NCBI GenBank assembly: GCA_045595285.1
Contig: JAZOAC010000164.1
Coordinates: forward strand, 11,386 to 75,385
DNA length: 64,000 nt
DNA from: Kiritimatiellia bacterium
Lineage (GTDB): Bacteria; Verrucomicrobiota; Kiritimatiellia; RFP12; UBA1067
Reading direction: 5' to 3'
The notes under the pieces are model-generated. The model worked only from the letters and a program-made list of their open reading frames with translations, was not told where the DNA came from and made no database searches. Shown here one piece after another: positions 4,640 through 36,427 of this stretch (within the stretch, counting starts at the first letter, position 1; each line of letters starts with the position of its first letter). Position numbers and translations under genes: made by a program.

Positions 4640-5548
4640 CTATGCCCTTGGATGGTACCTTCTGTGAATATCGCCGAGTCTTGACTGATCCACATGCGTA
4701 TAGATTTGGGTTGTCGATATGGAGGAATGCCCGAGCATCTCCTGTATTGCACGGATATCTGCCCCATGCGACAGGAGATGGGACGCAAAACAGTGCCTCA
4801 GAACATGCGGCGACACCGTATCGGGATCGACACCTGCCGCGACCGCACGCTGCTTGAGAATCTTGAACACTCCCATACGGGTGAATTTCTTTCCGAGTCT
4901 TGTCAGAAAAAGATGCCGTTCGGAGACGTTGCCCTTTGAGAATGTATCTCTGGCAGACTCCAGATAGCGAGTGATCGCATTTCCTGCGGCGCCTCCTATC
5001 GGAACAACCCGATCCTTGGCCCCCTTGCCTGTACACCGTACAAGCTCCGCACCGAACGGAAACGACTCTAGCGTAAGGTCGCACAACTCGCTTACGCGAA
5101 GTCCGCAGCCATAGAGCAGCTCCAGCATGGCTCGATCCCGCAGATCGCGAGGTTCTGTGCCCGACACCGAATCCACTAGACGCTGCATCGCCTCCTCTGG
5201 CAGTATCTTCGGCAGGACCAACCCTTTCTTCGGAGACTCCAGACCTTCAGTCGGATCAACGGCAATCAGCCGCGTGTCCTTCAGATGCGAAAAGAACTCT
5301 TTTATGGCGGTGAATGCACGAGCTCTGGAGGAAGCACGCTTCGCCGTATCACGCAACACATCCAGGTAGGAGGTCATACAGGCCCTGGACACCTTCCCGG
5401 CATCATGCACCCCCTGCCCATCAAGAAAACGAACGAGGGCCCGCACATCGCGCAGGTATGCCTCCTGCGTATTCTCTGCGAGCCCACGCTCCAGCGCGAG
5501 CGCGGCGGCGAACGACTCTACCGCCTCTGTAAACGATACTGCGCCCAT
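4640..5548 (-). CDS. xerD: Site-specific tyrosine recombinase XerD
   Basis: RDRAMLELLYGCGLRVSEL, GKGAKDRVVP, SPHVLRHCFASHLL, LGHSSISTTQIYTHV, ends YHPRA. Confidence 0.88.
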   Translation of the reverse strand: MGAVSFTEAVESFAAALALERGLAENTQEAYLRDVRALVRFLDGQGVHDAGKVSRACMTSYLDVLRDTAKRASSRARAFTAIKEFFSHLKDTRLIAVDPTEGLESPKKGLVLPKILPEEAMQRLVDSVSGTEPRDLRDRAMLELLYGCGLRVSELCDLTLESFPFGAELVRCTGKGAKDRVVPIGGAAGNAITRYLESARDTFSKGNVSERHLFLTRLGKKFTRMGVFKILKQRAVAAGVDPDTVSPHVLRHCFASHLLSHGADIRAIQEMLGHSSISTTQIYTHVDQSRLGDIHRRYHPRA

Positions 5549-27114: not shown

Positions 27115-28326
27115 ATGACGGAAAAGACAAAAACCAGCGATTCTCAGAAAATACTCATCTCGATACGCTCTCTCAGGCGAGCGTCTGCGCGCGATGTGAT
27201 CTCCGGCATATTCAACCATCTGGAACGGACTTCCGACTGCAACATCTGCCTGATGCAATCGGTGGAGAATCCGATAACGCCCGAAAAGATCAGTAACGCC
27301 GAAAAAAGCAATGTGGCCGGATTGTTCATATCCAAAGCCGAAGATGCCGAGCTTATGCGCGCATTGGTCGACACCCCTATCCCTATGGCGGTCATCGGGA
27401 TAAAAGATCCAGTTCTTAAGGCTCGCAAAAATCCGACCGTGTTTATCTTCAATGACAACGCCGGTATCGGGGCAATGGGAGCCAACTACTTTTTAAAGCA
27501 CGGGAAATTCAACTCCTTCGGCTTCGTATGCGCAAACATCGATATAAATTCGATGCAAGAGCGTGCCGACGCTTTCTGCAACAGAATAAGATCAGCTGCT
27601 CCCGACACATTCGTCAGCGTATTCCCGGCTGTTTCCGATTCCGGATCGGAAAATGACATCGCGGCGCTTTCTGATTGGATATTGACATTGCCGAAACCTG
27701 CCGCAGTAATGGCTGCTGCCGATTGGCGGGCGGTACATGTTCTGACAGCATGCGATCACTTGAAGATTCGTGTACCGGAAGCTGTGTCTGTCCTTGGTGT
27801 CGACAATGACGAATTCATGTGCGCACATGCATCTCCGCCGCTTTCGAGCATCTTGCCCAACCATGTCGAGATCGGCAGACGGGCTGCCGAAGAGCTAGAA
27901 AAACTCATCAAAAGCAAAAAGTCCGGACAACGCAAAATGATAACCGTACCGCCGCAAATGGTTATCGAGCGGGAATCAACGCGGATATGTGCGCCGGCGG
28001 CGGCGCTCGTCGACAGAACCAAGCGCTTCATCCGTGCGAACGCCACCCGCGGGATAAATGTCGCGGATGTTGTCGCTCATCTCAAAGTTTCACGACGCTT
28101 GGCGGAAATCCGCTACCGCGCGGCAACCGGAGAAACGATACGGGAAGCGATCGAATCGACAAAAATGGCGAAGCTTAAACGCCTGCTTATTTCCAACCGA
28201 CGACCAATCGCCGCCATTGCCGCCGAATGCGGCTTCAGCAACATCAACTCGCTTTCACACCGCTTTCAACAATGCTTCGGCTCTTCAATGCGCGAATTCC
28301 GGAAGAACGCCACCAATCCCGGATAA
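27115..28326 (+). CDS. XylR-type regulator (LacI-type ligand domain + C-terminal AraC HTH)
   Basis: DNAGIGAMGANYF, LPKPAAVMAAAD, VSVLGVDND, PPLSSI, IAAECGFSN. Confidence 0.9.
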   Translation: MTEKTKTSDSQKILISIRSLRRASARDVISGIFNHLERTSDCNICLMQSVENPITPEKISNAEKSNVAGLFISKAEDAELMRALVDTPIPMAVIGIKDPVLKARKNPTVFIFNDNAGIGAMGANYFLKHGKFNSFGFVCANIDINSMQERADAFCNRIRSAAPDTFVSVFPAVSDSGSENDIAALSDWILTLPKPAAVMAAADWRAVHVLTACDHLKIRVPEAVSVLGVDNDEFMCAHASPPLSSILPNHVEIGRRAAEELEKLIKSKKSGQRKMITVPPQMVIERESTRICAPAAALVDRTKRFIRANATRGINVADVVAHLKVSRRLAEIRYRAATGETIREAIESTKMAKLKRLLISNRRPIAAIAAECGFSNINSLSHRFQQCFGSSMREFRKNATNPG

Positions 28327-28416
28327 TACCGATTAAAACGAACGGAAAAGAAAATCCAATTATACCAGATACAAAAAGTTTTGCGTACTATTACCCTAAA
28401 AACGGCTGTTGATTTC

Positions 28417-28610
28417 AACGCAGAGGCGCGGAGACGCAAAGTAACGCAGAGAAAAAGAGAAGTAATGTGAAAAATGGAAAATACGAGAATTTTTCTGACG
28501 GAATGAATCTTCACCCATCGGGTGTCGATAGTGTGGGGTTGTATAAAAGAAGATAACTTTCAAAAAACTCAAAACGAGCTGTTTTCTCTGCGCCTCTGCG
28601 TCTCTGCGTT
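28417..28610. repeat. Inverted pair of 8-bp-unit repeats (CGCAGAGR) enclosing ~130 bp
   Basis: AACGCAGAGGCGCGGAGACGCAAAG at 28417 vs CTCTGCGCCTCTGCGTCTCTGCGTT at 28586-28610. Confidence 0.75.
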
Positions 28611-28655
28611 AAAAAAGAACTCGTCCAACTGCCGAATTTAGGCTAAACTCTAAAC

Positions 28656-29235
28656 TTATTTTTCCTCTCGCTCCATCAAGAGCCCCTGATGGCCTGCCGG
28701 GATTAACGCCTGTCCATGATAGAGTACAGCAAGATCCGGTCTCCCTGAAAGTTTGTATTCGCGCAACAGCTTTGGCGCTTGCGGATTGACGAAATCCCAA
28801 ATCCCGTTGCTTTGATTGCCTGCGCGAACTTTGCCGCGCTCATCCGATCTTGCATTTCCCCCGCATCCTTCAAGCAACGGACGAGACCGTTCCATGAAAG
28901 GTGCGGGGCGGACATGGTCTCCATTGGTACGCGATTTCACCTCCGGACCCAGTGGCGAAAGACGGTCTCGGCCTTCTTGCCCCGGCCCTTTCCCACGTCC
29001 GCGCATTTCCTCGCAGAGCGGGACTTCCACCCGAACCCAACATGTTCGTGATTCCGCGAAGCCGCACCCGCGACCCCGCACCGGCTTTCGCGCATACGAC
29101 TGCGCGGAGCAGGAGGTGAACGCCTTGGCCGCAGCTTTTCAAGTTCGGCGGCAACGGCAGTATCGTTGCCCTCTTCCCTGTATCCGGCAAGACGTTTTTC
29201 AAGCGCCGCCGCTTCCATCGTCGGTCCATTGGCAA
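28656..29235 (-). pseudogene. Possible degraded gene of unknown family
   Basis: Several overlapping short minus-strand ORFs with protein-like stretches in different frames; no intact CDS. Confidence 0.3.
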
Positions 29236-29345
29236 ATTCAGGATTTCGAAGGGTGTGTCCCTTTATTTTACGAGACGAATTAAATACTTTGTATTTTATA
29301 TAATATCATCCTTTTTTAATGTATGAAACCTTTATCGATGGCGCT

Positions 29346-31694
29346 TCATCTGAGTCTGTGCCTTGTTATCACCTCATCCTGCCAGCGCTTCGACAGAGAA
29401 ACAAATCTCGCCGAAAATCCGCACACACGCACAATGAGATCCTGATGGCGCTCGGGATGCTTCTGCGCGTCGAGCAGCTCCTCCACCGAATTGCAGTTCG
29501 GCTGCAGAAGATGCGAGCCATTCTTCGCGAACACCCGAATGACCGTAGCCATAAGGCCGGGGGTCATTACGCTGCCGTCGAAGGTGAGATTGGCGTTGCT
29601 CTGGTACAGGCATTCGTTCGGCAGCCGGCCAAGCGCCCCCATGACCGCCGTCACCCCTTCCTTGCAGCGGAACTCGCTTGGAGAAAGGCCTTGCGCGAGC
29701 CTATCGCCGCTGTGGCGGCCGTCGGGAGTCGCCTTGGTTTTCAGACCCCAGTATAGGAACTCGCGATAGGCAAAAGCACCGAGCTTGTAGCTGCCGCCCA
29801 TGTCCGTCTTCACGCCTTCTATGTCAGCATGCGTCCGTTTGATGAGCCAGGACATCAGCGAAACGGAGGCGTCGGAATTGTCGCCCCAGTACGGCGCGTC
29901 CATCGCGAGCATCCTGAGCCGCTCGCCCTTCTCGCCGCTCCAGTTCGAGCGTACCGCGTCAAGGAACTCGCGCACGCTGCACACCTTGTCCCGGAAGCAC
30001 ACCTTTTCGATGGAGAGAAGCGAATCGACTACGTTGCCGATGAACGCCAGCGTTATCTCGCGCGGTCTCTGGCGTCCAGTAAGGCCGCCATCCGTCGTGT
30101 CGCGCCGGGATGACACGCCGCCGACCATGCACATCGAATACACGGGATGCGGGAACACGCTCGCCGAAGAACGCCCGTACCGAGTGTAGTCGCCGATGAC
30201 GTCCCGGAAGAAACGGATGTGGTTCCTGTACACTATCTCCTTCAGCTCATCCATGTCCCTTGCGCCGTCAAGCGGCTCCATCGACAGGCGGCATTTCCGC
30301 CTGACGTCCGGATCGTCGTGGATCGCGAGGGCAAGCACCTTCGCCATGTTCATGTAGTTCGAGCTGTCGACGTCCTGCATGGAATCCACTAATCCGGTCC
30401 AGCATCCGCAGCCGATGTACTCGCGCGCATCTTCTACGGCGAAGCCCTCGTCGGCGAACTGCTTTATGAAGCGCTTGTCGTTGAACAGCGTAAAAGCGGC
30501 ATGCCCCTTGCAAAGCATCCTGCCAATATGCTCTAGATACGGCTGCGGGGAATCCGGCGCCACGCGGCAGTGGAGCTTGGGATAGACGCAGCGGCAGCCG
30601 ATGTGCGCATCAAGGAACATTCTCGTCAGCTCGTTGTACACCGGCTTCCCCTCCATGTCGCATCCGCCAAGCGTGACGTGAATCTCCACCTCCTGGTCGT
30701 TGTTCGCATCCAGCATCCGCATGTCGTCGTAGTGGCAATGCGCGGTGATGAGGAACTTCGCCACAAGGTCGCGCGCCCCCGCCTCGGTCAGCGTGCCAGC
30801 CGCGATCTCCCTGCGGTACGCATCAATGAACCAGGAGTCGGGGCGCCCAAGCGAAAAGATGTTCACGCCGTCCACATAACCGACGATCTCCCGCACGAAC
30901 CACAGGGTGTTCAGCGATTCGTAGAACGTGCGCGGCGGCTCCCACGGGCAGCGGGCCGATGCCTCGACCATGCGCGTGTCGCCCATCGCCTTCGCCGCCT
31001 CATGGAACTTGAGCTGGATCTGGCGTATGGTCTCAAGGCCGACGAGGGCGGTTTCAAGCTCCTTGCGCCCCTTCGCGTCATCCGCCGGGCATTTCTCAAG
31101 CGCGGCGGCGACTTCGTCGCGGACGCCTTTGAATCCGAGCTTGAGGATTCTGCGCATCGGCGGCACATGGTGCAGGTCATCGACGAACGGCCCGCAGATG
31201 ACCACCAGATTGTTCCGGCGGCGATGGCTGAGCGTCTCGAACGCCTCATCCGGAACGAGGCCCTTCTCCTTATAGAACTTCCAGCACAGCTTGTTCACGA
31301 TCCGTGCCGGACGCTTCCCGCCCCAACCGCCGTTCACTCCGGCCTCGAAGTAGAACGGCGATTCCGTGAACAGGAACGGCACAAAGTGCCTGCGCATCGC
31401 CATGTAGCATTCGCGGCGGACGTCGAGCGCGTCGTAGTCCGGATGTGCAGCACACCATGCCTTCAGGTCTTTCTCTATCTTCCCGTAGCTCTCCGCCGAA
31501 CGCGGATCCTTGACGACATCGCGATTCCCCTGCCCCCAATCGGGATAGAACGCGCGCAGCTGTTTCCTGAGCGCCGCGTAGTCCGCCGCCCGGAACGGAT
31601 TCGACGCAGCGTCGCCAGCAAACGTTCTGCGAACCGCCGCCAGGCTCGCCAGCGCGGCGGACCCTCCGATAAACGCTTTTCTCGTAAGTTGCAT
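29346..31694 (-). CDS. Glycyl radical enzyme (PFL-like superfamily) with Tat-like N-terminus
   Basis: PPRTFYESL, SLGRPD, VTLGG, KATPDGR, C-terminal LLDAQKHPERHQDLIVRVCGFSARF; N-terminus MQLTRKAFIGGSAALASLAAVRRTFA. Confidence 0.9.
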   Translation of the reverse strand: MQLTRKAFIGGSAALASLAAVRRTFAGDAASNPFRAADYAALRKQLRAFYPDWGQGNRDVVKDPRSAESYGKIEKDLKAWCAAHPDYDALDVRRECYMAMRRHFVPFLFTESPFYFEAGVNGGWGGKRPARIVNKLCWKFYKEKGLVPDEAFETLSHRRRNNLVVICGPFVDDLHHVPPMRRILKLGFKGVRDEVAAALEKCPADDAKGRKELETALVGLETIRQIQLKFHEAAKAMGDTRMVEASARCPWEPPRTFYESLNTLWFVREIVGYVDGVNIFSLGRPDSWFIDAYRREIAAGTLTEAGARDLVAKFLITAHCHYDDMRMLDANNDQEVEIHVTLGGCDMEGKPVYNELTRMFLDAHIGCRCVYPKLHCRVAPDSPQPYLEHIGRMLCKGHAAFTLFNDKRFIKQFADEGFAVEDAREYIGCGCWTGLVDSMQDVDSSNYMNMAKVLALAIHDDPDVRRKCRLSMEPLDGARDMDELKEIVYRNHIRFFRDVIGDYTRYGRSSASVFPHPVYSMCMVGGVSSRRDTTDGGLTGRQRPREITLAFIGNVVDSLLSIEKVCFRDKVCSVREFLDAVRSNWSGEKGERLRMLAMDAPYWGDNSDASVSLMSWLIKRTHADIEGVKTDMGGSYKLGAFAYREFLYWGLKTKATPDGRHSGDRLAQGLSPSEFRCKEGVTAVMGALGRLPNECLYQSNANLTFDGSVMTPGLMATVIRVFAKNGSHLLQPNCNSVEELLDAQKHPERHQDLIVRVCGFSARFVSLSKRWQDEVITRHRLR

Positions 31695-31695
31695 A

Positions 31696-32469
31696 TCAAT
31701 CCACCTTTGAAGTTATCCGCTGACAGTCGCCGATGACCTTTTCAGTGAAGCGCCGTCTGCCCGTCTTGTTAAGAAAAAGAGAAGTCGCGTACAGGCGATC
31801 ATCCTGAAATCCGCCGTCGCTCCAATAATCAAGAAACTTTACGTCAGCCCCCTTCGTGACATCGCGGATAAAATCGTAAACGTATGCCTTCATAAAGGAA
31901 TCGGGGAACAGACCGCGCAGGCACTTCGCCGCCGGCGGCAACACGAGCACAGGCCTCAGGCCCTCTTGTCTGCACCAGCCGACGAAGTCGCGCATTCGCG
32001 CCACGTTGGCGGAATATGCCGTGCGGTTCGTCTCCGTCATCGGGTCTGCATAATCATGTATGGAGAACTCCTTCTTCCAGCCCCTGTCGAGCCTGCTGGC
32101 GTATCCAGCCATCGCCTTTTCGTCAGGCATGCCGTCGAACTGAAGAAGCGGATGCGACGCGGCGCTGGGTTTGAGATCGTACGACTCAGGCAGAACGGAC
32201 GAGAAGAGGCAGATCGGAATTATGACGTATGCGCCGCACGCGAGCTCCTTTCGCTTCGACTTGAGAATGGCGACACCGCGACGCAGACTCTGCGGAGAAC
32301 CTGCAAGATTGAGGCCTTGCACGCCTGCAGACTCCCAATCAAACGCGAAAAGACCCGACTTGGAGCCGACGTTGACCCACTGCGCGAGATCCGCCCCTGC
32401 GCGAGCCGCGCCCGGGATAAGGCATATCGCCAGGATGAAAACCGCTACCCAAAAAAATCGCTTCTTCAT
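31696..32469 (-). CDS. Exported hypothetical protein, SGNH-like fold
   Basis: Signal peptide; VNVGS, GLNLA, VLVLPP, FLNKTG (no catalytic His apparent). Confidence 0.55.
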   Translation of the reverse strand: MKKRFFWVAVFILAICLIPGAARAGADLAQWVNVGSKSGLFAFDWESAGVQGLNLAGSPQSLRRGVAILKSKRKELACGAYVIIPICLFSSVLPESYDLKPSAASHPLLQFDGMPDEKAMAGYASRLDRGWKKEFSIHDYADPMTETNRTAYSANVARMRDFVGWCRQEGLRPVLVLPPAAKCLRGLFPDSFMKAYVYDFIRDVTKGADVKFLDYWSDGGFQDDRLYATSLFLNKTGRRRFTEKVIGDCQRITSKVD

Positions 32470-32480
32470 AACAACGCCCC

Positions 32481-33851
32481 TTATGGTTTCGACCTGAAGT
32501 CTTTAGAGCGAAAGAGCGGCTCAACGCGGCGAAGCGACTCCATATATTCGGATATCTTCACCAGTTCCTTTTGAATATTGAACTGCCATTGAGGACACTT
32601 CTTTTCACAGCGCGCACAGCCGATGCAGCGTTCCGCTCCTCTGAATGTGCCGAATCGCTTTCCGTAGTCGGCAAGAAACTTGAGCCTTGCCTCGTGGTCG
32701 CCGGGATCGGTAAGAGACGGCAGACGACTCCACTTGAGCTTCATGTTCCACCAGTGGAATATACCCACGATATCTACGCCGTATGGACATGGCATGCAGT
32801 ATCCGCACCCGGGGCAAGGCACGCCCTCTCCGCCGCCGGAATTGATCTTGATCGCCTCAAGATAAGACGATACCTCCTCCTGCGACAGCGGCTTATACCC
32901 CTTCTCGTTGAAGATGGAGATGTCCTCTTTCAAATGTTCAAATCGCGTGAATCCGGTCATCGCCGTCATCACGCCCTCGCGCTCGGCCGCGAACTTAAGC
33001 GACCACGCGGCATCAGTAAGGCCCGGTCTTGCCTTGGCGAGATGCTCTTTAGCCGCGGGCAGCATATTCGCAAGACGTCCTCCGGCGAGCGATTCCATGC
33101 CGACGGCCGGAATGCCCTTCGCGCGCAGTTTGGAAAGAAGCGACTCGGATCTGTTGGGCCCGCGCCAGTCGATGCCGTTTACAAGTATCGTCACCACATC
33201 CCACTGCTGCGTCTCCAAGAGATAGTCCATGAAATCCTCACGGCCATGGAACGAAAATCCGAAATGACGGATGCGCCCCTTCGCCTTCTCTTCGCGGAAG
33301 TAGTCGATCGCTCCGGTCTTAACGAACGTCTTTATGTAATCCTCCTGATGGACGAGCGAATGAAGCATATAAACGTCGAAATACCCAAAGCGCGTGCGCT
33401 CAAGCTGTTCCTTGAAGATACGCTTGGCGTCGGCGAGGCTTGATATATCCCATGGCGGCGCCTTGGTGCAGAACCAGAACGACTCCCTCGGATAGCGCGA
33501 GAGAGCGTGCCCGAAGAAGCGCTCGCTGTCGCCGCCATGATAGTGGTAGCCGCTGTCAAACCAGTTGATGCCGTGGGCAAGCGCGTAATCGACGTACTTG
33601 GTCGCGGTTGGGTAGTCCACGGGATCCATCTGATTTCTGAGTCTGCCTGTAGCAACCGGCAGTCTGACCCCGCCAAAACCTATAATGGAGACCTTGCGTT
33701 TGGGGTCGAGCGGCGACGGACGCTGTATGACGAACTCTCCCGGATTCTGATCAGGCAGCGCATCGTCCTTCGCCACCGCAGAAGCCGCCGCGAGCGGCAC
33801 CGTCGCGCCGATCGCCTTCGCAAACTCTCTTCTCGTGACCGCCATACTCAC
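32481..33851 (-). CDS. Aldo/keto reductase with C-terminal 4Fe-4S dicluster, Tat signal
   Basis: TRREF; IGFGGVRLP, GINWFDSGYHY, GRIRHFGFSFH; CPGCGYCMPCPYG and CIGCARCEKKCPQ. Confidence 0.9.
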   Translation of the reverse strand: MSMAVTRREFAKAIGATVPLAAASAVAKDDALPDQNPGEFVIQRPSPLDPKRKVSIIGFGGVRLPVATGRLRNQMDPVDYPTATKYVDYALAHGINWFDSGYHYHGGDSERFFGHALSRYPRESFWFCTKAPPWDISSLADAKRIFKEQLERTRFGYFDVYMLHSLVHQEDYIKTFVKTGAIDYFREEKAKGRIRHFGFSFHGREDFMDYLLETQQWDVVTILVNGIDWRGPNRSESLLSKLRAKGIPAVGMESLAGGRLANMLPAAKEHLAKARPGLTDAAWSLKFAAEREGVMTAMTGFTRFEHLKEDISIFNEKGYKPLSQEEVSSYLEAIKINSGGGEGVPCPGCGYCMPCPYGVDIVGIFHWWNMKLKWSRLPSLTDPGDHEARLKFLADYGKRFGTFRGAERCIGCARCEKKCPQWQFNIQKELVKISEYMESLRRVEPLFRSKDFRSKP

Positions 33852-34450
33852 GACCTCCCTTCAACAATCATCGCCGCCTTCGGACGCGCCGGGCAGAAAA
33901 ACTCACATGCGCCGCACCCCATGCACTTGTCGGCGTCCACCTTCGGAATCTTCGGCTTAGACGAGGGTGCGTCTTTATTCTCCACAAGGGAAATCGCTCC
34001 GGTCGGGCAATGGCGCGAACACGCGTTGCAAATGTCCTTACCGGTCGCCGCCACACAGCGCTCGCTATGCCATACGGCGATGCCCGTGCGAAGAAGCTTC
34101 TTGCCTTCCGGCGTGAGATCGCGCTTGATCGCCCCCGCCGGACACGCCTCGGCGCAAAGATTGCACTCGGGGCGACACCATCCGTACCGGAAGTCTAGCG
34201 CAGGGCGTGCGAAATGCCCGGCTTTCGATGAAGGACGCAGAATGCCTGATGGACACGCGCTTATGCATTTCATACATCCAACGCACCGGGTCCTGAACGT
34301 GGCCGCATCCTCCGCGCCAACAGGAACCGGCAAGCGCCGCTTCTCGTCGGCCGACGCCTCGGCGTAACTCACCTCACCCATTTTTCTGTCGCGAAGTACA
34401 TAGACGTAAGCGTCTCCCGCCGCCAACATGATAAAACTACGCAAAGTCAT
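33848..34450 (-). CDS. NapG/MauM-like polyferredoxin (4Fe-4S)
   Basis: Four Cys clusters: CVGCMKCISACP, CRPECNLCAEACP, C..CNACSRHCP, CMGCGACEFFCP; ATGA overlap with upstream gene. Confidence 0.85.
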   Translation of the reverse strand: MTLRSFIMLAAGDAYVYVLRDRKMGEVSYAEASADEKRRLPVPVGAEDAATFRTRCVGCMKCISACPSGILRPSSKAGHFARPALDFRYGWCRPECNLCAEACPAGAIKRDLTPEGKKLLRTGIAVWHSERCVAATGKDICNACSRHCPTGAISLVENKDAPSSKPKIPKVDADKCMGCGACEFFCPARPKAAMIVEGRS

Positions 34451-35196
34451 CGCCATTTCAAAGCCTCCTTCCGGCACGAGCCTTTACAGTTGAGGCAAAC
34501 CACGCACTTTGAGTGGTCGACGACAACGGATCTGTCGCCACGAATCTGTATCGCTCCTTTGTCGCAAGCTTTCGCGCAAAGCCCGCACTTAACGCATTTG
34601 CCGGCGTCGATTCGCGGACGAAAGAGCGCAAAGCGCGAAAAGAGCCCGAGAAACGTCCCTACAGGGCACATCTGATTACACCACCAACGCGCACGGAATG
34701 CCGTCATAATCAAAATGAACGAGAACAGCGCCAACGCCCAGACGACAAGCGCGAGCGACGCATCGCCTTCACGCAGCACTCCCAGCGAAAGAAACCGCCC
34801 GAAGATTCCGTATGGCGCGATCAACCCAGTAAAGCCCAAAATGGCGGCGATTATAAAAAGCGCCAGCACGACGTAGCGCACCCACCCTACGATTCGCAAA
34901 CTTTTCAGGCGAAGAAACTTTAACGGCGTGCGCGCCACATCCTGCGCGATGCCCAGCGGGCAGATGAGCGCGCAATAGGCCCGAGCGAAAAGCGCCACCG
35001 ATATCGCTATCAGCGCCAGCACCGTAATCTCGAGCGACATCACCGCAGGGATGAATTGCGCCCTAGGAAGCCATCCGAACGAAACGCATATCCACGCAGT
35101 GGGCATGACAAACAACAATGTCATCGCAATTAGCGACAGTATCGCTGCTATCCTAACCAACAAGGCGGCTGCGCCTAAAAAATATTCTCGCTTCAT
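34447..35196 (-). CDS. NapH/MauN-like membrane 4Fe-4S protein
   Basis: Multiple TM segments; RAYCALICPLG and RWWCNQMCPVG; two CxxCxxCxxxC motifs. Confidence 0.85.
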   Translation of the reverse strand: MKREYFLGAAALLVRIAAILSLIAMTLLFVMPTAWICVSFGWLPRAQFIPAVMSLEITVLALIAISVALFARAYCALICPLGIAQDVARTPLKFLRLKSLRIVGWVRYVVLALFIIAAILGFTGLIAPYGIFGRFLSLGVLREGDASLALVVWALALFSFILIMTAFRARWWCNQMCPVGTFLGLFSRFALFRPRIDAGKCVKCGLCAKACDKGAIQIRGDRSVVVDHSKCVVCLNCKGSCRKEALKWR

Positions 35197-35348
35197 GTTT
35201 TAGGAGTATATCACAAATTTCTTTTGAAGGGAACGGGGGTAAGCGGTTAGTCGGCTGTGCAACTGCATTTTTGTTTCTCCTTCTTGACCAGTCCCATCCA
35301 CAACGTACGGACGCCCGTACTACTATTGCAGATGCAAATTAATCTCAT

Positions 35349-36287
35349 TCATCCGATGGCGTCTTTGCAATACGCGCGAGACACATCAACTTCGCGCACC
35401 GCGTCGGATGTGGCGGGAATGTCGTATTCAAGCTCGATGTCGCACGGGAAGCGATAGCCTTCCTTCTGCATCAGCGCAAACAGCCCCTTAAGCGGCGTAT
35501 CTCCCTTGCCGAACGCGAGGTTCTTCTGCCCGTTCGCCTTGGACGTGCGGTCCTTCAGGTGTACGGAAAAGATTCGGTCATGGTATTTCTTGACGAACGC
35601 AAGCGGATCGTCGTCATTGGCCGCGACATAATGGCCGATATCGAAGTTGATCATGAACTTCGGAGACCAGTCGAGCAGCGGGCCGTCGTATGTAGTGGCG
35701 TTGATCTGAAGATGGTTGTGAAACGCGACTGCGATATCGTACTTCTCGGCGAGCTTGGCAATACGCAGCGCCATCGGTTTCCAATCGGCAATCGTCTCCG
35801 GCTTGGGAATTTCGCGGGTAATCGCTTTCGCACCCATGATTTTCGCCACCTTGAAGCAGTATTCCAATTCTGCATCAGGCTGCGTCATATAACTTCCCAG
35901 AATACCGAATTTAACGATGTGAGCATTTATTCCGGCGGCATCGTACTTCTCGCGCACCGCCTTGAAGGAGTTGATGTCCACAGTCTTGCGCCATTCAGCG
36001 ACGCGCAACTTTTCTTCTCTGGTCATCTTCCACAACAGCTTGGGCACGGGAGCACCTGCGTCAAGTTCAAGGTCGTTGCACATCAGCTCGATTTCACTTA
36101 GACCCGAATCCTTGGTATATTCAATAGTTTTGAATGGACCAAAGGGCATAGTGCGGTAGGAGTAGGTGATAACTCCGATCGGAATGCCCTGATAAATCGA
36201 ACCGCACTGATTGGCGGCAAACGGGCATGAGCAACCGCCGGCGACGAGCGCCGCGCTCTGAATCAAAAAGTCACGTCTGTTAATCAT
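35349..36287 (-). CDS. Sugar phosphate isomerase/epimerase TIM barrel, Tat lipoprotein
   Basis: NRRDFL...AGGC; GVITYSYR, FHNH, FDIGH, HLKDR, IELEY. Confidence 0.85.
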   Translation of the reverse strand: MINRRDFLIQSAALVAGGCSCPFAANQCGSIYQGIPIGVITYSYRTMPFGPFKTIEYTKDSGLSEIELMCNDLELDAGAPVPKLLWKMTREEKLRVAEWRKTVDINSFKAVREKYDAAGINAHIVKFGILGSYMTQPDAELEYCFKVAKIMGAKAITREIPKPETIADWKPMALRIAKLAEKYDIAVAFHNHLQINATTYDGPLLDWSPKFMINFDIGHYVAANDDDPLAFVKKYHDRIFSVHLKDRTSKANGQKNLAFGKGDTPLKGLFALMQKEGYRFPCDIELEYDIPATSDAVREVDVSRAYCKDAIG

Positions 36288-36315: not shown

Positions 36316-36427
36316 TGAGAGATGAGAAGTGAGACGTGTAAGACAGGTGAGACAAGTAGGACTTATCTCGCTTACAAATGACTCTTCCCTCATTACTCAT
36401 CACTCATTACTCATTACTCATTACTAC
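36316..36427. repeat. Intergenic 7-/9-bp repeats with hairpin
   Basis: TGAGAGA/TGAGAAG, GTAAGACAG/GTGAGACAA stem-loop, then CTCATTA/CTCATCA x5. Confidence 0.65.

Follow-up and report, generated by a model that had tools for sequence, protein, structure and literature searches.

A candidate exported glycyl-radical enzyme encoded with a putative periplasmic iron-sulfur redox module in a Kiritimatiellia bacterium

Analysis of a 64,000-nucleotide stretch of a Kiritimatiellia bacterium genome (G000:C164:11386-75385, hereafter the window; the source genome G000 is 86% complete) points to a glycyl-radical enzyme (GRE) that would leave the cytoplasm. Its gene is the last of five closely packed minus-strand genes, which encode a NapH-like membrane protein, a NapG-like polyferredoxin, an aldo-keto reductase (AKR) with a ferredoxin domain, an exported protein of 257 residues (p257) and the GRE itself. 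We propose that the enzyme is exported to the periplasm, where it would act on a sugar-derived substrate freed by the glycan-degrading enzymes encoded around it. Taken as a whole, this explanation of the sequence data appears to be the best one, with a probability of roughly 0.55. It leans on a predicted signal peptide that is kept in nearly every member of the GRE family while its type is labile.

Identity of the glycyl-radical enzyme

The protein matches PFL-like (PF02901, 222.3 bits with a cut-off of 24.3) and Gly_radical (PF01228, 61.3 bits) in Pfam. It reads MQLTRKAFIGGSAALASLAAVRRTFA at the N-terminus and contains RVCGF, the intact glycine loop that had been pointed out in a preliminary description of the window. 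In an alignment of the query with its 120 best homologs, both the radical-bearing Gly759 and the catalytic Cys431 are invariant (121 of 121); the latter aligns with the Cys-loop cysteine of PFL2 and CutC. The GRE is predicted from these residues to be catalytically intact. The start of the gene is secure, as a Shine-Dalgarno sequence (AAAGGTGG) 6 nt before the ATG and the stop codon of the p257 gene 1 nt before it fix the upstream start. The signal region holds no alternative start codon (Val21 is encoded by GTT), and the first 97 codons offer no other start that keeps the conserved N-terminal region. The preliminary description had allowed for a real start further downstream, which can be set aside.

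Comparison with characterised GREs was made by hidden Markov model scores and by sequence and structure matches to solved GREs. All NCBIfam GRE equivalogs score far under their cut-offs: TIGR01774 (PFL2/dehydratase subfamily) 245 versus 678, HypD 197 versus 1100, CutC 182 versus 1050, and the sulfopropanediol dehydratases 176 and 164 versus 1000. The nearest solved relatives match with E 4e-49 over residues 241-779. An AlphaFold2 model built on 31 family sequences (predicted local distance difference test, pLDDT, 88.5; predicted template-modelling score, pTM, 0.90) superposes on solved GREs with template-modelling (TM) scores of 0.72-0.78 at 17-21% identity, none of them standing out. By these comparisons the GRE falls in no characterised GRE class, and the clustering with a known class that the preliminary description had considered as a possible objection was not seen.

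The solved GREs comprise B12-independent glycerol dehydratase (1r8w), A. fulgidus PFL2 (2f3o), CutC (5fau), 1,2-propanediol dehydratase (5i2g), and PflD and YbiW (8id0, 8id7), which act on 1,5-anhydro-sugar-alcohol 6-phosphates. With the solved 1,2-eliminases the query shares the full GRE fold and an alignable glycine loop (RVxG) and Cys loop, and like the solved GREs it would depend on a PFL-AE-type radical S-adenosylmethionine (SAM) activase, a type present in the genome. It differs from them by the export signal at its N-terminus and by the residue two positions after the catalytic cysteine (Cys+2). Glu at this position (G-C-x-E) marks the known GRE 1,2-eliminases (glycerol and propanediol dehydratases, CutC, HypD and IslA), whereas the query has Thr and the 121 aligned sequences have Asn (97), Asp (19), Thr (4) or Ser (1), so that Glu-assisted 1,2-elimination is probably not the chemistry of this GRE. 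We know of no characterised GRE with an N-terminal export signal.

The export signal and its conservation

Tat (twin-arginine translocation) signals follow the consensus S/T-R-R-x-F-L-K and have a weakly hydrophobic h-region, a basic c-region and an A-x-A-like cleavage site. The query GRE has the motif T-R-K-A-F-I, and its signal shows the h-region, c-region and cleavage-site features, with an h-region hydrophobicity of 1.92 (best 10-residue window) and VRRTFA before the conserved mature start. In the structural model residues 1-29 lie outside the fold with pLDDT below 50, and the fold begins at about residue 30. Despite its R-K pair the signal looks Tat-type on these features. R-K is also seen on other Tat-like proteins of the source genome (for example C136:341-2047); a crude genome-wide regular-expression scan gave 57 RR, 13 RK and 23 KR signal-like N-termini. 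TatA is present in this genome (C167:5085-5231).

A word-indexed homolog search gave 319 proteins at E <= 1e-10, of which the best 120 (57-98% identity) were used. Signals were classed by a rule of our own, namely a hydrophobic 10-residue window with R-R, R-K or K-R before it. A signal-like N-terminus was found in 115 of the 120 homologs (19 RR, 23 RK, 9 KR and 64 Sec-like); the other five are three proteins without a signal, one fusion to a GH16 (glycoside hydrolase, GH) domain with a Sec-like signal, and one Sec-like protein without the anchor motif. The median h-region hydrophobicity was 1.87 for RR, 1.85 for RK, 2.55 for KR and 2.58 for Sec-like signals, which suggests that the RK signals behave as RR and the nine KR signals as Sec; after this regrouping about 42 of the 120 are Tat-like and 73 Sec-like. 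A few of the Sec-like rows are probably Tat signals shortened by wrong start calls. The homolog N-termini differ in sequence and length and then run into a conserved mature start (...DYAALRxELRAFYP). One protein, P0001, is 98% identical to the GRE yet has a different, Sec-type signal.

The history of the signal type was followed on a FastTree tree of the mature parts, from which the nine KR proteins, the three signal-less ones, the fusion and the row without the anchor were left out. Tat-like and Sec-like signals require at least 21 changes over 107 rows (33.8 +/- 2.5 with shuffled labels), and RR versus Sec-like 14 changes over 83 rows (shuffled 17.5 +/- 1.2). RR and RK, on the other hand, change 15 times over 43 rows (shuffled 14.3 +/- 1.7), as expected for free interchange. 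The preliminary description had proposed that a Tat-like signal of the RK variant sends the GRE out of the cytoplasm, and had named signal-less homologs as a reason to abandon the idea; with a signal in 115 of 120 homologs, the core of that proposal is supported and export of the GRE appears well supported by sequence comparison. In the part of the literature reached by full-text searches, no account of an exported or periplasmic GRE, or of a GRE activase with a signal, was found.

In two fusions, P0028 and L045 (L045:6093-9554), a Sec-type signal and a GH16 domain precede a complete GRE of the family, and the L045 fusion is followed by a Tat-signal activase. They give a hint on the substrate class. 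Additionally, subgroups of the homologs P0040-P0120 differ behind LRAFYP, where some read DWGQG..VVKDPR, as does the query, and others have the Cys-containing motifs DECHxxCKDP or PGYCRxxCQS; these could form disulfides or a metal site if the protein is exported.

Activases and the place of radical installation

The source genome encodes eight GREs and five activases, all of which pass the TIGR02494 cut-off. Six of the eight GREs have signal-like N-termini and form three clades that are at most 27% identical to each other (the query with C124; C164b; and C126a, C126b and C112), and the other two, PFL and C98, are cytoplasmic types. The paralog loci lie in varied glycan-degradation contexts that include GH28, GH92, esterases and beta-helix proteins. 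As had been stated earlier, the window holds no radical SAM gene: among the 23 PF04055 hits in the genome the sole one on this contig is C164:80694-81167, and all five activases lie outside the operon and the window, which fits the activation in trans that had been suggested. The nearest activase (C164:80487-81242) is signal-less, lies 5.1 kb past the window end and 37 kb from the query GRE, and adjoins a paralogous GRE with the canonical Tat signal TRRSF. A tblastn search of the region downstream of the GRE (28300-29400) with three activases gave no activase remnant (best E 2.4).

Two of the five activases are Tat-type (C126:9055-9879 and C112:3427-4260), reading M..TRK[DE]FMA...SPMLA before the conserved mature start KTPLMLD; the CX3CX2C motif and the GGE SAM motif are kept in both activase types. 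Although the activases of this genome pass the cut-off for PFL-AE-type activases, they are short (251-277 aa) and leave the ferredoxin-like insert of TIGR02494 (profile positions about 42-97) unmatched. Unlike known activases of this type, one subfamily bears a Tat-type signal peptide. Among relatives of the Tat-signal activases, the extension is seen in 4 or 5 of the best 150 representatives of 10,655; the extension-bearing ones all belong to the nearest subfamily, of which two members are without it. An activase of another, usually signal-less subfamily (..EKFATHDGPGIRT), that of L096 (G512:C32), bears the Tat-type N-terminus MNITRRAFAGAAAAFAAAG, so that activase signals may have more than one origin.

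Scanning a single genome for each species yielded 47 further family loci, many of them cut at contig ends, whose titles name Kiritimatiellia, Opitutales, Lentisphaeria and unclassified Verrucomicrobia, many from gut, rumen or faeces. An activase stands directly 3' of the GRE in 17 of the 47 loci and is signal-less in 12 and Tat-type in 5 (motifs DRRVF, NRRGF, TRKEF and twice TRKAF; RR in L018 and L019). Beside the signal-less activases, ten of the twelve GRE N-termini are readable and all ten are Tat-type (9 RR, 1 RK); with the own-genome pair C164b, RR is found in 10 of 11. GREs beside signal-bearing activases are RK in L018, L023 and the source genome's C112, RR in L019, and Sec-like in the L045 fusion and the source genome's C126a, which makes RR one of six, counts in which the rows include close kin and are not independent. 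Whole-genome inventories gave nine genomes with a Sec-like family GRE, six of which hold a signal-bearing activase (G000, G509, G510, G511, G512 and G514). In G516 and G517, whose only family GRE is RR-type, the activases are all signal-less. The exported proteins p241 and p323 (C126), encoded beside Tat-signal activases, were considered as conserved partners and rejected, having no match in the 47 family loci.

In L018 (L018:10526-13521) genes for an OmpA-family protein, TatA/B and TatC follow on the same strand directly after a GRE with a TRK signal and its DRRVF activase, which may be a chance adjacency to housekeeping Tat genes. A Pfam scan of neighbouring open reading frames (ORFs; 54 of the 156 listed, loci L018-L033) placed the family loci in similar but varied contexts, with GH28, GH92, GH78, GH43, GH20-like DUF4838, GH109 and esterases. 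In three loci (L024:12291-15587, L028:3750-6728 and L031:3516-6809) the family GRE is directly adjoined by a large protein, 990-1100 aa long, whose middle domain is HZS_alpha.

The query GRE may be exported unactivated and receive its radical in the periplasm from one of the two Tat-signal activases of the genome, and this is a serious competitor of the reading proposed here, although the less probable. In its favour, two of the five activases have a Tat-type N-terminus before the mature start and both types retain their SAM motifs, such activases directly follow family GREs in 5 of 47 loci, and the extension recurs in the 4 or 5 relatives mentioned above. Sec-like signals would moreover demand activation after export, six of the nine genomes that have a Sec-like family GRE, and none of the two with the RR type only, hold a signal-bearing activase, and L018 has Tat genes behind the GRE-activase pair. 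However, no periplasmic source of SAM or of low-potential electrons is known to us, the query signal is Tat-like and not Sec-like, three of the nine genomes gave no signal-bearing activase, and the sole homologous operon (L030, in the same-genus genome G515, which is also G006) has a TRK-signal GRE followed by a signal-less activase, 58% identical to C164:80487-81242. The Tat-like signal of the query together with the signal-less activase of L030 favours activation in the cytoplasm followed by Tat export. Judged from these sequences, we would put the chances of that route for the query GRE at about even. For the family, on the other hand, the many Sec-like relatives and the Tat-signal activases imply that activation must also take place after export in many organisms.

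The AKR/NapH/NapG trio and its link to the GRE

The AKR matches Aldo_ket_red (PF00248, 96.2 bits, cut-off 24) and Fer4_9 (PF13187, 29.5 bits, cut-off 27) and carries the Tat motif TRREF, which bears out the earlier description of an AKR with a Tat signal and an Fe-S domain. The NapH-like protein matches Fer4_5 (48.5 bits) and Fer4 (36.7 bits), its CX3CP motifs reading YCALICP and WWCNQMCP, and reaches 76.1 bits on TIGR02163 versus a cut-off of 213.05. The NapG-like protein reaches 68.3 bits versus 269 on NapG PRK09476 and 62.1 versus 178.85 on TIGR00397. The two match NapGH in architecture and are not members by score. As in the E. coli quinol dehydrogenase NapGH, whose NapG is exported by Tat, a membrane protein with Fer4_5 and CX3CP motifs and a four-cluster ferredoxin partner are encoded by adjacent overlapping genes; unlike E. 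coli NapGH, the scores lie well under the cut-offs, the partner is an AKR with an Fe-S domain (AKR-FeS), and the NapG-like protein has no twin arginine. No molybdoenzyme such as NapA was found among the operon ORFs or the other window ORFs scanned. The NapG-like protein reads MAMTLRSF here; in L030 its counterpart (L030:3171-3740) reads MALTLRCLLF and is likewise without a twin arginine. In other trios most AKRs carry a twin-arginine signal, and so do about 15 of 18 NapG-like proteins.

AKR-FeS homologs (E <= 1e-40) occur in 70 of 151 genomes of the order, the best being 44% identical. Fifteen of the 20 best AKR loci have both a NapH-like and a NapG-like gene, in the order AKR-NapH-NapG, three have one of them and two have neither (one on a short contig); the source genome holds a second trio without a GRE (C71:2942-5294). 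The literature accessible to full-text searches yielded nothing on an AKR/NapGH trio. We read the trio as an independent, conserved periplasmic oxidoreductase module, which is probably quinone-linked.

In L030 the gene order is NapH-NapG-AKR-GRE-activase with overlaps of 10, 1, 4 and 4 nt, the NapH, NapG, AKR and GRE proteins being 45%, 46%, 55% and 59% identical to those of the query; the p257 gene is absent. Other trios, which are uncharacterised, resemble these two in having the same three families together and Tat on the AKR, and differ in their usual order, AKR-NapH-NapG, from the NapH-NapG-AKR followed by the GRE that is seen here and in L030. That the genes are tightly coupled in two species at 45-59% identity speaks for a shared pathway, and the rarity of the link speaks against an obligatory partnership. 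The link in this genus is probably more than chance. The coupling of the GRE to a membrane Fe-S chain, which was the centre of the preliminary description, therefore stands weakly: L030 speaks for it, and the scarcity of the link among GRE loci and trios (counted below) against it. Its caution that the trio is common and the linkage maybe incidental holds in the first part (15 of 20 loci), whereas translational coupling in L030 speaks against the second.

It is unlikely, and about as probable as activation in the periplasm, that the adjacency is meaningless and that a mobile, patchy GRE gene came to lie after a periplasmic oxidoreductase operon with no relation to it. The GRE family is patchy: of 401 genomes sampled from the class 10 have a member (two candidates scored per genome), and of 12 other genomes of the genus 3 do, while the 30 relatives gave no ortholog above 64% identity. 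The different signal peptide of P0001, at 98% identity, points to another 5' junction; p257 is encoded here and not in L030, and in one DNA run a segment just downstream of the GRE is swapped for other sequence (see below). Against an accidental landing stand the same gene order in a second species at 45-59% protein identity, with start and stop codons overlapping, and the gaps of 1 and 11 nt in the query operon.

That the chain is instead an integral partner of the GRE, moving electrons for the radical enzyme or for its periplasmic activation, seems to us rather improbable. The genes are tightly spaced here and all five are translationally coupled in L030, with the activase last; the L030 AKR is 55% identical to that of the query versus at most 44% for other homologs in the order, and both GRE-linked operons have the order NapH-NapG-AKR. 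On the other hand, a GRE that already bears its radical requires no electrons from outside for catalysis, and the potential of electrons at the quinol level is far too high for them to serve a radical SAM cluster. The linkage is seen in 2 of 48 loci with the query included, none of 20 related trios lies near a GRE or activase, and family GREs occur in many other contexts. The activase of L030 being signal-less, a periplasmic electron supply for activation is not required there.

The proposed pathway and points against it

In the reading that we prefer, the query GRE would be folded and given its radical in the cytoplasm and then exported by Tat. Its activase would likely be signal-less and encoded in trans, the closest candidate being C164:80487-81242. 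The chemistry would be a radical reaction on a carbohydrate-derived molecule other than Glu-assisted 1,2-elimination. The NapH-like, NapG-like and AKR-FeS proteins would form a periplasmic quinone-linked oxidoreductase module that is normally separate and in this genus became part of the GRE operon; most likely they would act in the pathway of the same substrate, oxidising or reducing a carbonyl or an alcohol group, and would not serve the radical itself.

Several observations weigh against this reading. The GRE signal has R-K in place of the canonical R-R, the signal classes come from our own rule and not from SignalP or TatP, and TatC was not found in the 86%-complete source genome; TatC was found in all 12 of the other genomes of the genus, and 28 of 30 relatives have it as well. 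Sec-like signals are carried by 64-73 of the 120 relatives and the type changed at least 21 times on the tree, so that activation before export is not a general rule for the family. Activation after export would need both SAM and a low-potential reductant, and we know of no periplasmic source of either. A signal-bearing activase was not found in three of the nine genomes with a Sec-like family GRE, G508, G513 and G515, of which G508 is 63% and G515 71% complete. The activases of that subfamily in G513 and G515 begin right at the mature sequence, and no frameshifted signal precedes them. As for the trio, no GRE or activase lies within about 8 kb in any of the 20 related AKR/trio loci, a family GRE is joined to the trio in 1 of 47 other loci (L030 only), and 400 other genomes sampled from the class, G006 not among them, gave no close AKR ortholog (E <= 1e-110). 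Additionally, as the NapG-like protein lacks the twin arginine, the chain may be arranged in the membrane otherwise than E. coli NapGH.

A complete periplasmic glycyl-radical system, in which a Tat- or Sec-exported GRE and a Tat-exported activase would be served by AKR-FeS and NapG/NapH feeding low-potential electrons from periplasmic sugar oxidation and in which glycan-derived substrates would undergo radical cleavage beyond the cytoplasm, is more doubtful still than an integral role of the chain. Least probable of all is a GRE that stays in the cytoplasm like the known ones, with its hydrophobic N-terminus acting as a membrane tether or having no function: the R-K motif, the missing TatC and the absence of a recognisable signal in 3 of 120 homologs and 4 of 34 readable loci are outweighed by a signal kept in 115 of 120 homologs though its sequence and type vary, by charges on the N-terminal side that place the bulk of the protein outside (positive-inside rule), by the fusions to a signal-bearing GH16 domain and by the export signals of the neighbouring proteins.

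Layout of the cluster, p257 and the surrounding genes

The features of the cluster are collected in Table 1. The tight cluster of five ORFs given in the preliminary description was confirmed on the minus strand, its families by Pfam and NCBIfam and its spacing by coordinates, with gaps or overlaps of 1-31 nt. The overlap of the NapH-like and NapG-like genes is at most 31 nt and shrinks to 10 or 4 nt with an in-frame ATG as the start of the NapG-like gene; the NapG-like gene and the AKR gene overlap by 4 nt, and gaps of 11 nt and 1 nt separate AKR from p257 and p257 from the GRE. A -10 box of its own had been described for the cluster at about 35206-35216. A motif of this kind is indeed present, one position lower; a promoter consensus scan made no call at TGTGATATACT, the region holding 3 sites versus 3.8 expected.

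Table 1. Features of the GRE cluster and its upstream neighbour (positions in the window)
Feature	Position	Strand	Basis and remarks
Xylose-isomerase-like TIM-barrel protein, Tat signal (NRRDF)	35349..36287	-	AP_endonuc_2 52 bits; N-terminus read
-10-like motif (extended), TGTGATATACT	35205..35215	-	9 nt 5' of the NapH-like ATG; promoter role only putative
NapH/MauN-like integral-membrane Fe-S protein, 249 aa	34447..35196	-	Two CX3CP motifs; C-terminal 2x[4Fe-4S] ferredoxin domain
NapG/MauM-like polyferredoxin, 209 aa or fewer	33848..34477	-	N-terminus MAMTLRSFIML
AKR, C-terminal 2x[4Fe-4S] domain, canonical Tat signal (MSMAVTRREFAKAIGATVPLAAASAVA)	32481..33851	-	Pfam; N-terminus read
p257, exported 257-aa protein, Sec-type signal	31696..32469	-	Predicted SGNH-hydrolase-like fold
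GRE, 782 aa	29346..31694	-	Pfam, NCBIfam, AlphaFold2 model; gut/rumen family of the Planctomycetes-Verrucomicrobia-Chlamydiae (PVC) group bearing export signals
GRE signal peptide (predicted), residues 1-26	31617..31694	-	TRK n-region, weakly hydrophobic h-region, basic c-region (VRR), TFA
Catalytic Cys431 codon, loop G-C-W-T-G, Thr at Cys+2	30402..30404	-	Codon checked; aligned with PFL2 and CutC
Radical-bearing Gly759 codon, RVCGFSARF	29418..29420	-	Codon checked

The p257 protein has 24 homolog clusters and matches no family of Pfam or NCBIfam; Pfam gave nothing at E <= 1 over 18 members, and an Atlas search returned unnamed clusters, with a DltD label on 12% of one of them. Its AlphaFold2 model (pLDDT 86.5) has as top Foldseek matches the SGNH esterases 3mil, 1jrl, 1deo and 7pzg (E 5e-5 to 3e-3, probability 1.00), with target-normalised TM scores of 0.48-0.65; the matches include rhamnogalacturonan acetylesterase and sialate O-acetylesterase. 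In the alignment the Ser of G-S-N/K-S-G is kept in at least 90%, and no His is invariant or nearly so. The model suggests an SGNH fold in which the canonical catalytic triad is perhaps absent. The label of an SGNH-like exported protein, given to it before, holds for the predicted fold and fails at the level of sequence-family membership.

A Pfam scan of the window ORFs showed a long same-strand stretch of glycan-degradation genes with GH2, GH106, MGH1-like GH, Gfo/Idh/MocA, CBM4_9, beta-helix proteins and FGE-sulfatase-like proteins, and further with Tat-signal TIM-barrel proteins and metallophosphoesterases. The TIM-barrel gene of Table 1 is the same-strand upstream neighbour of the cluster, 152 nt away, and its product may share a pathway with it. 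A tyrosine recombinase gene (Phage_integrase, 149 bits) lies at 4640-5548, at the low end of the glycan-gene run. Between a gene for a XylR-type regulator and the end of the GRE operon, a 32-nt inverted repeat is found at 28413-28444 and 28583-28614, its arms 81% complementary and 138 nt apart. The region 28413-28614 holds three inverted-repeat pairs in all; a search for direct repeats behind the GRE (28300-29400) gave none.

Occurrence in sequencing runs

The 5.85-kb stretch is found nearly unchanged in 18 runs of at least 9 studies of animal gut or faeces (0.79-0.89 of sampled words). In the metatranscriptome library X7 0.86 of the words are present, and contigs tile 29249-35266 in six pieces that bridge the p257/GRE, AKR/NapG and NapG/NapH junctions. 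DNA may be present in an RNA library and a two-gene contig is no proof of one transcript, so that X7 is weak evidence and gives a weak hint that the cluster is expressed; in the RNA runs X19 and X20 scattered pieces of the stretch are covered. In the DNA run X1 a contig has, from 97 nt past the GRE stop, 1082 different letters in place of 263 nt (28985-29249). Breaks at about 28584 and 28615 are seen in contigs of several runs. At 36380-36425, TTGCTCA-like repeats draw many short high-depth contigs and loose ends in several runs, and this repeat is probably common to other organisms.

Significance

To our knowledge, GREs and their radical SAM activases are regarded as strictly cytoplasmic or microcompartment enzymes, because activation needs SAM and a low-potential reductant. 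If the reading proposed here is true, radical chemistry would move to the compartment where gut and rumen PVC bacteria degrade complex glycans, and a new enzyme class would be added to anaerobic polysaccharide degradation, some members having a Tat-signal activase as their partner and some being fusions with a GH16 domain. It would raise the question of how SAM and reducing power are supplied outside the cytoplasm, or of how a radical survives Tat transport, and the operon described here would be a candidate for a periplasmic redox step linked to this chemistry.

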